DNA of 64,000 nucleotides, taken from contig MWCD01000001.1 of NCBI GenBank assembly GCA_002069885.1, positions 67,795 through 131,794 on the forward strand, in the 5' to 3' direction. Below the pieces are notes generated by a model. It did not search any database. It was given only the letters and a program-made list of their open reading frames with translations, and had not been told where the DNA came from. A program made the position numbers and the translations under genes. This DNA is from a bacterium ADurb.Bin236. GTDB taxonomy: Bacteria > UBP15 > UBA6099. How positions within the stretch are numbered: position 1 is the stretch's first letter; each line of letters opens with the position of its first letter. Of the stretch, positions 35,218-38,169 are shown one piece after another.

Positions 35218-38169
35218 TCAGACAGCGGCGAGTTCTTCAGCCGTCTTCAAGCCGGGATTGACACCGTGCTGACTGAGAAGATCCAACGCGCCTCTCCTCA
35301 CCGAGTCCATCTGTGAAGTCACGGCGAGAGCCGAGTCCGTCAGAATTTTTGCTTTGGCCATATCGACGGCGACTCGCGCGAAGTCCGCGTCTTCAATATT
35401 GGACCTTGCCGCCACCACGTTGATGTATTCCATGCGTAGGTCTTCAAGCAAATGCCCCATCACGTTTTCCATCTGTCCTACGCTCGCCCTCATTCCGTTG
35501 AGAGTCTCGATTGCGGCGTCTACTTGGTCAATGCCGTTCAATGCGCCGGCCTGCGATTGTATATTCAGCGAGTTTATACCGAGGTTATACGCGCGAGCGT
35601 CCGGCATCGAGAAATCGAACTTGTGCGAATCGATGTTGTCAGAGTTCGCCTGAACGTCAGACGGACGCTTGGTTATCGTCACATCCACAACCATCGCGCT
35701 GCCGCCAGATTCAAAGAGAATCTTGCTTCCGTCAGGAGACCACGTGGGATTCGTTCCGGATACGCCCAGATCGAATTCCTGCTCCATTACGAGATTGTAA
35801 ACCTTAATGGCTCCGCCGCTTTCATAGACAATATTGTCGCCGTCGGAGGACCAGTCGGGGTTGGTCCCCGCCACGCCGGGACTGTCAGAAGAAACCGCTC
35901 CGGTGGCGAAATCGATTATGACGATACTACCGCCGTCGTCCACTACGAGTTGAGAGTTGTCATACTTCCACGACGGGTTGTTGTAGTTGTTCCCGCCGAA
36001 TGTCAGTTGGTTGACATTCATCGCGCCGGTTACGCCGGTGCATGATGTCGATGCGTTCGCGTAGTATATATTGCCGTTTTCTATCCACGCCACCATGTCT
36101 CCGCCGTTGGACATCGCTATGTCAGACGCGTCATTGGTCAGAGAATCGCTCGCCAACGTGTATGTCGTTCCATTGAGCGTGTAGATATCTCTTATGTTCT
36201 GGTTGGGAGTGGAGCGGTTTGAGATGAACCACATGTCCCCGCCCTTGTAAGCCGCCCCATAATCGTTCCATGTGAGCCATTCGGCCGTGCCGGGTATCGG
36301 GTCCAACGGGTCGGGAATCGTGTCGCCGTCTGTGTCTGTGTTTGACGGAACTTGAGTTGGATCAATATTGAGTCCGCCGGCATATTGCCCGCTGGCGGAA
36401 TCCAGCGGATTTCCGAGACGCGCGCCCGATCCGTCCCATTCAGCTCCGAACGGATTATTAGTGGAGGAATAAGTGTTGTTGTAAATCAAATCGTAGCTGG
36501 CGTGATCGAGGAATCCGTCCGCGTCCAAGTCCGGGTCTAGCGAAAGAGACCACGCGGGGATGTTCCCTACTAAGTTGGGGTTAGAGCCTGCGGTCACCTC
36601 AATGACATCAGGGAATCCGTCTCCGTCCCTGTCTCTGCGGTTCATAACAGTCGGGTTCGCCAATATCGCGGTTGAAGCGTCTTCGCCTGATCTGATAACT
36701 ACGCGGATGAAAGCCGTTCCATTCGAGTTCAGGTCGATATTCGTGTCCGTGGTGTAGCTGAAAGTCTGAAGGCCGCCTGTTCCTGTGCTGCTTGTCAATG
36801 TGCCCCAAGAAACGCCGTCATCCGACCATTGCAATCTGTATTGATGGCCGTTTTTTATGGAAACGCTGATTCTGTCCAGACTGCGAGAGACCGCGCCGGC
36901 GGAAGTGTCCATCGTAAATGTTCTGACATTGGTGTTAACCGGGCCGAGGTCTACGAAACTGTTCACCACGCCGCTGAGAGCTACCGGTATCGGGCCGGGA
37001 GCGTTAACGCTGTTAATCGTTATCGCAGTGGCGAAATTTACCGGTTCGTCTAGGACGACCCGGACGGCGTTGTATGTGGTCGCGCCGCCGACTGCATGAG
37101 TCGCCGGCCCGCCCGCGCTTATCCCATTAAAAACTGACACCCACGCGCTCGTCCCGGAATCTCTGACTTGGACGGTGTAATTCATTCCTGCCGTCACTGT
37201 GACGGTAAGGTCTTGGACCAGCGTGGCCCCGCCTGTGAACGTTCTAGTCCTTGTATTGGCCTGAGACACTGCCGTCACGTCTGTCGAATCGACGGAGCCC
37301 AATGACGCGATAGTGTATATCGGGAGCGCCGCGCTTAGCGACGCGCCGACTTCGGTGGCGTCCGCGTCATTGTTGTCTATTCCGACGACCCATCCGTCGC
37401 CGTCCGCGTCGATCTGATTAGGGGCCGATGCGCCCACGAAGTTTAACACGTCGTTGATAACACCGACCGGCCCGACATCGTAGTACCCGTCGCCGTCGGG
37501 ATCGACTAGCACATAGGGGTCGTGAGTGAATTGGGATGCCGCGCCGATAGCGGCGTTTGTCGCCGGATCAATCGTCTGAATAAACGCTCTGTCAGTCGTT
37601 CCCGCCCCTCCGGGACGCGTCGCGTCCGAACTCACTTCGTCTATGTAAAGAATCTGATTGTTTGCCGCCCAACTTGCGCTGTGCGCCGTCCCGGTGGCGA
37701 CGACAGTCTGCAGCGTCGCCCCGTCTGCGACGATATCCTCGACAATGTCTCCCTGAAGTATTTTTTTGGCGTTGTACAACGTCGAATACGCTATCTGGTC
37801 GATTTCCTTGACGAGCGCTCTAGCTTCGCTGTTTAGTTTTGTGCGATCAGAGCAATCGTCCCTCAAAACCGCTTCGTTGGACGCTCTCACCGCGAGGCTT
37901 TTCAACTGGACGAGAATATCGCCGATTGTTGCCATTGAAGAGTCCATTATACGCGTCATCCTGATGGACTCTTCCACGTTCGCGATGGCGGTGGACAGCG
38001 ATCTGGCCTTCGCGTTCATGCCGTCTCGTATAGCGAGGCCCGACGGGTCATCCGCAGCGCGGTTGATTTTCAACCCGGATGAAAGACGTTCCGTCGCTGT
38101 CTTCATCTCTAAAAATCTCATTCGGAGATTGTTGACGTTCAAAGAGCCTATAGCATTGTCTATTTTCAT
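35218..38169 (-). CDS. Giant flagellin-family protein (983 aa) with a roughly 700-aa central insert
   Basis: The N-terminus matches Flagellin_N (TERLSSGLKINRAADDPSGLAIRDG), and the C-terminus matches Flagellin_C (RSNIEDADFARVAVDMAKAKILTDSALAVTSQ). The central insert has PD40/TolB-like blades (NPDWSSDGDNIVYESGG, NPTWSPDGSKILFESGG) and Asp-rich Ca-binding repeats (DPDGDGYYD, DADGDGW, DRDGDGFPD, DTDGDTIPDPLD). An AAGGAG RBS is present. Confidence 0.8.
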   Translation of the reverse strand: MKIDNAIGSLNVNNLRMRFLEMKTATERLSSGLKINRAADDPSGLAIRDGMNAKARSLSTAIANVEESIRMTRIMDSSMATIGDILVQLKSLAVRASNEAVLRDDCSDRTKLNSEARALVKEIDQIAYSTLYNAKKILQGDIVEDIVADGATLQTVVATGTAHSASWAANNQILYIDEVSSDATRPGGAGTTDRAFIQTIDPATNAAIGAASQFTHDPYVLVDPDGDGYYDVGPVGVINDVLNFVGASAPNQIDADGDGWVVGIDNNDADATEVGASLSAALPIYTIASLGSVDSTDVTAVSQANTRTRTFTGGATLVQDLTVTVTAGMNYTVQVRDSGTSAWVSVFNGISAGGPATHAVGGATTYNAVRVVLDEPVNFATAITINSVNAPGPIPVALSGVVNSFVDLGPVNTNVRTFTMDTSAGAVSRSLDRISVSIKNGHQYRLQWSDDGVSWGTLTSSTGTGGLQTFSYTTDTNIDLNSNGTAFIRVVIRSGEDASTAILANPTVMNRRDRDGDGFPDVIEVTAGSNPNLVGNIPAWSLSLDPDLDADGFLDHASYDLIYNNTYSSTNNPFGAEWDGSGARLGNPLDSASGQYAGGLNIDPTQVPSNTDTDGDTIPDPLDPIPGTAEWLTWNDYGAAYKGGDMWFISNRSTPNQNIRDIYTLNGTTYTLASDSLTNDASDIAMSNGGDMVAWIENGNIYYANASTSCTGVTGAMNVNQLTFGGNNYNNPSWKYDNSQLVVDDGGSIVIIDFATGAVSSDSPGVAGTNPDWSSDGDNIVYESGGAIKVYNLVMEQEFDLGVSGTNPTWSPDGSKILFESGGSAMVVDVTITKRPSDVQANSDNIDSHKFDFSMPDARAYNLGINSLNIQSQAGALNGIDQVDAAIETLNGMRASVGQMENVMGHLLEDLRMEYINVVAARSNIEDADFARVAVDMAKAKILTDSALAVTSQMDSVRRGALDLLSQHGVNPGLKTAEELAAV

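Follow-up and report, generated by a model that had tools for sequence, protein, structure and literature searches.

A large flagellin of an uncultured bacterium with a predicted beta-propeller, beta-sandwich repeats and acidic calcium-type motifs in its insert

The analyzed stretch of DNA (bacterium ADurb.Bin236, assembly GCA_002069885.1, contig MWCD01000001.1, positions 67,795 to 131,794 of the forward strand; 64,000 nucleotides (nt), hereafter the window) contained a gene encoding a flagellin of 983 amino acids (aa), the two flagellin ends of which enclosed a central insert of 736 aa (about 700 aa in the initial annotation of this DNA). According to the explanation that is favored here with moderate confidence, the product of this gene is a genuine flagellar filament protein, namely, a giant-type flagellin of an uncultured diderm anaerobe driven by a sigma-28 promoter; a six-bladed TolB-type propeller would adjoin domain D1, and the rare modular insert would form a calcium-rigidified coat with a binding, non-enzymatic role.

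Gene, flagellin ends and promoter

The features of the gene and its flanks were as follows (positions are those of the window):

35218..38169, minus strand: gene of the 983-aa flagellin, from the ATG at 38169 to the stop codon at 35218-35220, which is counted in
37738..38169, minus strand: N-terminal D0/D1 helical region, aa 1-144 (Flagellin_N at aa 12-140)
35275..35532, minus strand: C-terminal D1/D0 helical region, aa 880-965 (Flagellin_C)
35218..35274, minus strand: 18-aa tail that the Flagellin_C model no longer covers (HGVNPGLKTAEELAAV), aa 966-983, plus stop
38483..38509, minus strand: sigma-28 (FliA)-type promoter TAAA-N15-GCCGATAA, 314 nt upstream of the ATG
38170..38482, minus strand: long 5' leader; a stem-loop (38441-38464) directly follows the promoter, and the ATG is preceded by an AGGAG ribosome-binding site
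35085..35135, minus strand: two hairpins resembling terminators, with T-tracts, 3' of the stop (consensus match alone)
35124-35151: sigma-70-like promoter for secA, overlapping the terminator-like hairpins (consensus match alone)

The placement of the open reading frame (ORF) in the initial annotation (35218-38169, 983 aa) was exact, the gene lying on the minus strand, and the Flagellin_N and Flagellin_C ends that it had named both scored above the Pfam cut-offs in the hidden Markov model (HMM) check. Flagellin_N reached 85.5 bits (cut-off 26.6) and was matched in all 10 members of the family described below, and Flagellin_C reached 53.2 bits (cut-off 23) over the full length of the model (positions 1-86). 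The best NCBIfam flagellin models gave 105-112 bits, versus 57.4 bits for TIGR02550 of FlgL, and the key motifs were kept in 10 of the 10 family members. The D0/D1 termini would polymerize and form the filament core as usual. The tail beyond the Flagellin_C model comprised 18 aa in this protein and 27 aa in a 336-aa flagellin encoded elsewhere in the window, and the tail motif G[VI]NPGLKTA.EL was common to both proteins and to P0005, a flagellin from another metagenome-assembled genome (MAG). Such tails beyond D0 would sit in the lumen of the filament.

The promoter was the sole match to the sigma-28 consensus with zero mismatches on both strands of the window, and it lay on the coding strand, the calculated expectation being about 0.008 perfect matches in 128 kb. 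Among the relatives, P0002 had a perfect site 496 nt upstream, and P0003 had a site with one mismatch and an N16 spacer 331 nt upstream. Late-class flagellar (sigma-28) regulation of the 983-aa flagellin gene is thereby predicted. Having its own sigma-28-type promoter, terminator-like hairpins after the stop and a sigma-70-like promoter before secA, the gene looks monocistronic. It should be noted that the leaders were unusually long: 314 nt in the window, 331 nt in L001 (about 9670-10000) and 496 nt in L008 (about 4442-4937), the latter two being inferred. The stem-loop of the leader in the window is an inverted repeat, and Rfam and tRNA scans of the window gave no matches, the Rfam scan including the leader; the long leader may represent a putative element of post-transcriptional control.

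The 983-aa protein was an exact match to the entry 'MAG: Flagellin [bacterium ADurb.Bin236]'. An identical product was found in four independent assemblies of different samples (one NCBI, two from JGI, the Joint Genome Institute, and one Logan), and in all four the gene had the same neighbors, a FecR/FGE-sulfatase gene on one side and secA on the other. The reading frame was not interrupted, and the guanine and cytosine (GC) content was unremarkable. Nine homologues from other metagenomes were collinear with the protein across both junctions between the flagellin ends and the insert. Thus, the chimeric assembly that the initial annotation had named as a ground for withdrawing its claim was checked for and is not the case: the 983-aa flagellin gene is real and intact.

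Modules of the insert and distribution of the family

The insert and the linker that follows it were divided as follows:

37525..37737, minus strand: beta-strand segment, aa 145-215, a likely candidate for the missing blade and closure of the propeller
37321..37524, minus strand: acidic loop region, aa 216-283, with DPDGDGYYD at 223 and DADGDGWV at 254
36970..37320, minus strand: beta-sandwich repeat 1, aa 284-400 (model confidence, pLDDT, 60-84; homology to repeat 2)
36634..36969, minus strand: beta-sandwich repeat 2, aa 401-512, the conserved last copy, with the Asp-box-like WSDDGVSW
36271..36633, minus strand: acidic region resembling thrombospondin type 3 (TSP3) repeats, aa 513-633, with DRDGDGFPDVIE at 513, DLDADGFLD at 547 and DTDGDTIPDPLDP at 612
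35668..36270, minus strand: PD40/TolB-like beta-propeller blades, aa 634-834 (PD40 match, model)
35533..35667, minus strand: linker back to D1, aa 835-879 (alignment landmarks)

By alignment landmarks, all ten family members were split into the same modules: D0/D1-N of ~143 aa; the beta segment with the acidic loop region (155-169 aa); a variable block; a conserved beta-sandwich of ~106 aa; the acidic region (~130 aa); the propeller segment (~200 aa); the linker, constant in all members with 35 aa between landmarks 845 and 880; and D1/D0-C of ~100 aa. The variable block comprised 104 aa in the 983-aa protein and 277-280, about 380 or 656-685 aa in the relatives, and consisted of tandem copies of one beta-sandwich. 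Repeats 1 and 2 of the 983-aa protein were homologous to each other (BLASTP E-value 3e-6; match to the repeat HMM at aa 317-366), repeat 2 scoring 148 bits with the repeat HMM, and at the position of repeat 1 the relatives held 277-685 aa with extra sandwich copies. The HMM of the conserved copy found two copies in the 983-aa protein and four in P0002-P0004, the longest members having as many as ~8; the 983-aa protein was the shortest of the family, the nine relatives measuring 1150-1587 aa. The F5/8 type C model scored below its threshold at aa 442-494 (18.4 bits, Pfam cut-off 28.2), and a faint NedA-like match was found in one other member; the former is at most a hint of a galactose-binding-like sandwich. 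The insert does contain the propeller and the calcium-type repeats of the initial annotation, which was incomplete in that tandem homologous beta-sandwiches of variable number are present as well.

Five DxDxD[GT] motifs were found in the insert (aa 223, 254, 513, 547 and 612), versus 0.13 expected from shuffling of the insert, and none of 20,000 shuffles reached five. The motifs at 223 and 254 were kept in most family members, and DRDGDGFPDVIE, PDxDxDG(F)xD and D(T)DGDTIPDPLDP were kept in all ten at an overall identity of 36-50%. The pattern of these motifs is that of TSP3/DxDxDG calcium loops, and the acidic motifs of the insert may bind calcium. The insert contained 84 acidic and 27 basic residues (net charge -57; -56 to -164 in the relatives), and Ser and Thr made up 19% of it.

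The PD40/TolB-like propeller proposed earlier was confirmed by a PD40 score above the Pfam cut-off (26.8 versus 20.9 bits), matches being found in eight of the ten family members, and by a TolB-like fold in the AlphaFold2 model of the insert. In the predicted structure, a six-bladed TolB-similar propeller fold was found, with a strand count of 18+5; the family blade HMM detected three blades strongly and one weakly, and the identity of the propeller was 16-18% to TolB and 4-8% to sialidases. The propeller is probably split, the first ~70 and the last ~200 residues of the insert closing the ring. The insert-only model was built from 10 sequences and had a mean predicted local distance difference test (pLDDT) value of 65, its confident regions being aa 145-214 (pLDDT 83-90), both sandwiches (70-88 for repeat 2) and aa 634-834 (70-91). 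The full-length AlphaFold2 model built from a 4-sequence alignment had a mean pLDDT of 41 and was not usable. Comparison of the insert with chains of the Protein Data Bank (PDB) by sequence gave nothing meaningful (Aladin, E-value 0.76). A second PD40 protein was observed in the window (437 aa with a Glucodextran_B domain, 53899-55212, minus strand); PD40 propellers are common in the source genome.

When the insert alone was searched exhaustively with HMMER against 1.84 billion representatives, 3213 matches were returned. Only eight representatives had E-values of 1e-30 or below, and every one of them carried Flagellin_N and Flagellin_C, while the remaining matches covered the propeller part alone. 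All strong matches being flagellins, the full insert module is therefore restricted to flagellins. Six of the ten family members were found through this search alone, and a profile search of a collection of 5.8 billion proteins revealed no further members. The family thus comprised about ten sequence clusters, none of them from a cultured bacterium; a deep-mine MAG, a digester bin and further MAGs were among the sources. P0005 (910 aa) had a D0/D1 identity of 44-46%, the same C-terminal tail and an unrelated insert, from which it follows that inserts were swapped on related scaffolds.

Proposed function, alternatives and genomic surroundings

Under the favored explanation, the gene would be transcribed alone from the sigma-28 (late flagellar) promoter, and its product would be exported unfolded through the filament channel, the outer region folding outside the cell. 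An excursion from the propeller would carry two DxDxDG loops, the tandem beta-sandwiches (two here, up to ~8 in relatives) and the TSP3-like stretch with three invariant DxDxD motifs. Extracellular calcium at the five acidic motifs would rigidify this outer region, the resulting coat would be thick (roughly 26-37 nm) and strongly negative, and the propeller face and the sandwiches would provide binding surfaces for particles, polymers or other cells and would not be enzymes. TolB-type/PD40 propellers and discoidin-like sandwiches are typically binding modules; this, together with the lack of a catalytic domain and of an HExxH motif in the protein, favors a binding or adhesive role. The geometry was estimated from the standard axial rise of 4.7 Å per subunit, a core radius of 6 nm and 736 extra residues, which gave a minimum outer diameter of 20 nm for solid packing and about 26-37 nm for realistic packing; the same formula gives ~23 nm for Salmonella. 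The estimate of 26-37 nm is in line with the thick filaments of flagellins of more than 1000 aa (PMC6248924).

Several observations weigh against this explanation. Genes of the basal body, hook, cap or chaperones were found neither in the 64 kb nor beside any relative, and because no apparatus genes lie nearby, we infer a working flagellum from the sigma-28 promoter and the second flagellin alone. For the L006 relative, no sigma-28 site was found within 600 nt upstream. Every NCBIfam flagellin match was far under its full-length cut-off, which is explained by the foreign insert. The 18-aa tail could hamper assembly or export in the narrow lumen, and the 336-aa flagellin is tailed too. The sequence evidence for aa 145-215 as a propeller blade was weak. 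The Pfam model TSP3_bac (PF18884) scored 22.7 bits at aa 513-532, just under its cut-off of 25, and was reported in only two of the ten family members, with E-values up to 1; hence, of the TSP3-like calcium repeats suggested at first, the five conserved acidic motifs stand and the Pfam threshold is missed, and the label 'TSP3-like' denotes a resemblance, not a passed membership. Finally, aa 218-283 and 512-627, precisely the regions that bear the motifs, were poorly modelled (pLDDT below 50); low confidence at aa 513-633 is to be expected because the fold would depend on bound ions.

A further-reaching version of this explanation is considered doubtful. It assumes a TolB-type propeller split by an excursion of 420 to 1000 aa and seated on D1 despite the out-and-back topology, with folding and rigidity switched by calcium after export, by analogy with the logic of RTX and TSP3 proteins, and with a sandwich copy number that would adjust how far a calcium-dependent brush, adhesive or ligand-capturing, extends. 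If it is true, the flagellum would be a combined organelle of motility and attachment in these uncultured anaerobes.

The alternatives have to be weighed together with a second flagellin gene:

45736..46746, minus strand: short flagellin gene, 336 aa (Flagellin_N 69.8 bits, Flagellin_C 65.3 bits; NCBIfam flagellin models match)
46902..46928, minus strand: sigma-28-like site TAAA-N15-GCCGATTT, 156 nt upstream of the short flagellin gene, 2 mismatches

This gene, located 7.5 kb from the giant gene on the same strand and encoding D0/D1 regions 36-42% identical to those of the giant protein, shows that the assertion of the initial annotation about the absence of other flagellar structural genes from the 64 kb was wrong. 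Nine two-mismatch sigma-28 matches were found in the window versus 5.7 expected by chance, and the site upstream of the short gene is suggestive by its position alone.

It is unlikely, although it deserves the first place among the alternatives, that the 983-aa protein is a minor or specialized flagellar component, or a secreted or displayed protein, the flagellin termini of which serve only as a flagellar type III export and anchoring signal. The 336-aa flagellin would then build the bulk of the filament, and the large protein would be sparse, local (a hook-proximal or distal segment) or released. The nearby short flagellin with its own sigma-28-like site agrees with this, as do the always solitary gene with non-conserved neighbors and the high energetic cost of 20,000 copies of a subunit of 983-1587 aa (an argument given in PMC11532411). 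The C-terminal tail past D0 was likewise taken as a point in favor, but the short flagellin is equally tailed, so that it is no distinguishing feature of the large protein. Moreover, D0/D1 match both flagellin models at full length with the key motifs present in all ten members, many bacteria co-polymerize several flagellins, and in Bermanella a flagellin of more than 1000 aa is the filament subunit by experiment (PMC6248924).

Less probable still is a purely mechanical outer region without a specific ligand, which would make the filament thicker and stiffer through calcium cross-links between subunits and would help the cell to swim through viscous sludge or a biofilm matrix. In viscous media, motility is modulated by outer domains, and a filament of greater thickness has been proposed to be a mechanical adaptation (PMC8931119, PMC6248924, PMC11532411). 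Variation in sandwich copy number alters bulk and not chemistry, and the samples include metagenomes of the anaerobic-digester type (ADurb bin). Nevertheless, propellers of the TolB type and discoidin-like sandwiches usually act in binding, and the strict conservation of the propeller and of the three C-terminal acidic motifs at 36-50% identity suggests more than bulk. It should be noted that a mechanical role and the favored binding coat are not mutually exclusive.

An enzymatic flagellin, with a catalytic propeller (sialidase-, lactonase- or phytase-like) or with substrate gating as in DPP-IV and tricorn peptidases, is very improbable. Weak DPPIV_N matches were found in nine of the ten members, but DPPIV_N is the non-catalytic propeller of DPP-IV; flagellinolysin provides a precedent, going by its citation in PMC7643111, but its model NF033876 scored 22.9 bits versus a cut-off of 205, and the match was located in the D1 region. 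No peptidase, esterase or HExxH domain was found in the whole protein by Pfam, NCBIfam and motif search, the matches at the sequence level were confined to PD40/TolB repeats, and the identity to sialidases was lower than that to TolB (4-8% versus 16-18%). As for an assembly chimera or a decaying pseudogene in which flagellin ends became fused to an unrelated surface-protein gene, the origin of the sequence from a MAG and the resemblance of the propeller to thousands of non-flagellar PD40 proteins could suggest it, but the identical product and neighbors in the NCBI, two JGI and Logan assemblies, the uninterrupted frame, the unremarkable GC content and the module order and junctions kept in nine homologues from other samples have effectively refuted it.

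The surroundings of the gene were not conserved: the giant gene was solitary in the window and in L001-L004, L006 and L008, and the FecR/FGE-sulfatase and radical-SAM neighbors were rejected as partners, not being conserved with it. The scan of the larger ORFs of the window revealed no fli/flg/flh apparatus genes, and MotA/MotB were located ~8 kb from the gene of the relative P0003. Four small genes with a STAS domain (anti-sigma-antagonist-like; Pfam STAS 29-58 bits) were observed on the minus strand at 41427-41744, 41853-42212, 42399-42767 and 45202-45543, one of them directly downstream of the 336-aa flagellin gene, and a further STAS gene lay in L001 (18202-18483), about 5 kb from the giant flagellin of the relative; these genes may reflect partner-switching control tied to flagellar expression. 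The short flagellin gene has in its vicinity the genes of a GH84 beta-N-acetylglucosaminidase (NAGidase, 311 bits; 48169-49479, minus strand) and of a GlmU-like sugar-nucleotidyltransferase (43010-44305, plus strand); flagellin glycosylation is conceivable.

Two adenylate/guanylate cyclase genes (58657-60165 and 61851-63365, minus strand), one with GAF domains, flanked two ORFs without family matches, and ORFs without a Pfam or NCBIfam match were also located on the minus strand at 17205-19577 (790 aa), 19740-20957 (405 aa) and 23671-24615 (314 aa). The catalytic domain of an ATP:guanido phosphotransferase (McsB or arginine-kinase-like, 55 bits) was found in a 558-aa protein (25257-26933, minus strand); a diderm would not usually have it, and it may have a bearing on the affinities of the organism. 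LpxK and KdtA are encoded in the window, which indicates an outer membrane and thus a diderm. The nearest relatives of its SecA were MAGs (58-66% identity), followed at about 53% by Firmicutes of the Thermoanaerobacterales type.

Comparison with known systems

According to Thomson et al. (2018), flagellins of more than 1000 aa are giant and those of more than 800 aa are 'large', and the former build thicker filaments (PMC6248924). At 983 aa, the protein falls just short of the first group and is a 'large' flagellin, and its nine relatives of 1150-1587 aa are giant; the term 'giant flagellin' of the initial annotation therefore suits the type, with its very large insert, and not the length. The giant flagellins of Bermanella marisrubri and Oleibacter marinus (PMC6248924) are similar in that D0/D1 flank a very large surface insert without an enzyme domain and in that the family grows by internal domain duplication. 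Thicker filaments have been shown for these giant flagellins. The inserts are nevertheless unrelated, with DE/DX regions in those proteins and a propeller, beta-sandwiches and acidic motifs in the 983-aa flagellin, and the lineages differ too, the known hosts being marine gammaproteobacteria and the present one an unclassified uncultured anaerobe.

The 793-aa flagellin of Geovibrio thiophilus has a very negative surface, for which mineral adhesion has been proposed (PMC11532411). Its outer region (D2-D5) is likewise large, multi-domain and all-beta, with one domain arisen by duplication, and it shares with the present protein an anaerobic host and a strongly negative surface, there proposed to adhere to positively charged minerals. 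Unlike the insert described here, it consists of Ig-like and DUF992-like sandwiches, without a propeller and without calcium-type motifs, and its structure was obtained by cryo-electron microscopy, whereas that of the 983-aa flagellin is predicted. Flagellinolysin (HExxH; Eckhard et al. 2017, as cited in PMC7643111) is similar as a flagellin that shows a functional foreign domain thousands-fold on the filament; the 983-aa flagellin has no HExxH motif or peptidase domain, and a binding or scaffold role is suggested instead.

The individual modules of the insert also have known counterparts. The C-terminal domain of TolB is a six-bladed PD40 propeller (PDB 1c5k, 2hqs, 2w8b); TolB is periplasmic, whereas the flagellin propeller would be extracellular and is apparently broken by an excursion of 420 aa. 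A TolB orthologue was rejected (TIGR02800, 32.6 bits versus a cut-off of 343), the match covering a propeller fragment alone without the N-terminal domain of TolB. With TSP3 (PF18884) and DxDxDG loops, the acidic regions share the DxDxDGxxDxxE pattern (DRDGDGFPDVIE), the acidic context, the extracellular location and a structure that is predicted poorly without ions. Unlike in TSP3, the flagellin motifs are single and dispersed and form no tandem 'wire', in addition to the score just under the Pfam threshold.

Among the 682 outer-domain clusters of Fields et al. (2024), one with the one-line description 'WD40-repeats' (cluster #55) is listed beside peptidase and pectate-lyase-like clusters (PMC11532411). 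It is similar in that, by this description, a beta-propeller is located in the outer region of an annotated flagellin, and a propeller on a flagellin is therefore not new in kind; the cluster may include the family of the 983-aa flagellin. The propeller described here is of the PD40/TolB type and is accompanied by variable beta-sandwich arrays and DxDxD motifs, both unmentioned in the main text of that paper. In the literature searched, no paper was found that connects flagellin with PD40, with an outer domain of the beta-propeller kind or, in this sense, with TSP3 repeats. Thus, the novelty originally claimed is limited by the precedent of propeller outer domains and holds for the specific combination, which appears to be undescribed, as do the restriction to a tiny clade, the sandwich array of variable copy number and the probable split propeller.

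Flagellin outer domains represent a large and mostly unexplored reservoir of surface-display architectures, only a handful of which have structures or functions assigned. If calcium governs folding after export in the 983-aa flagellin, this would be a natural case in which ions gate the assembly of a very large passenger on a polymer secreted by a type III system. Such a case would be relevant to the engineering of flagella as display scaffolds, and it would hint at the way in which motile cells of digesters and subsurface sediments become attached to particles or partners; until the existence of the filament is shown, the practical value stays modest. In comparison with the systems considered above, the family is a rare undescribed variant of the known giant flagellins and no new kind of system.

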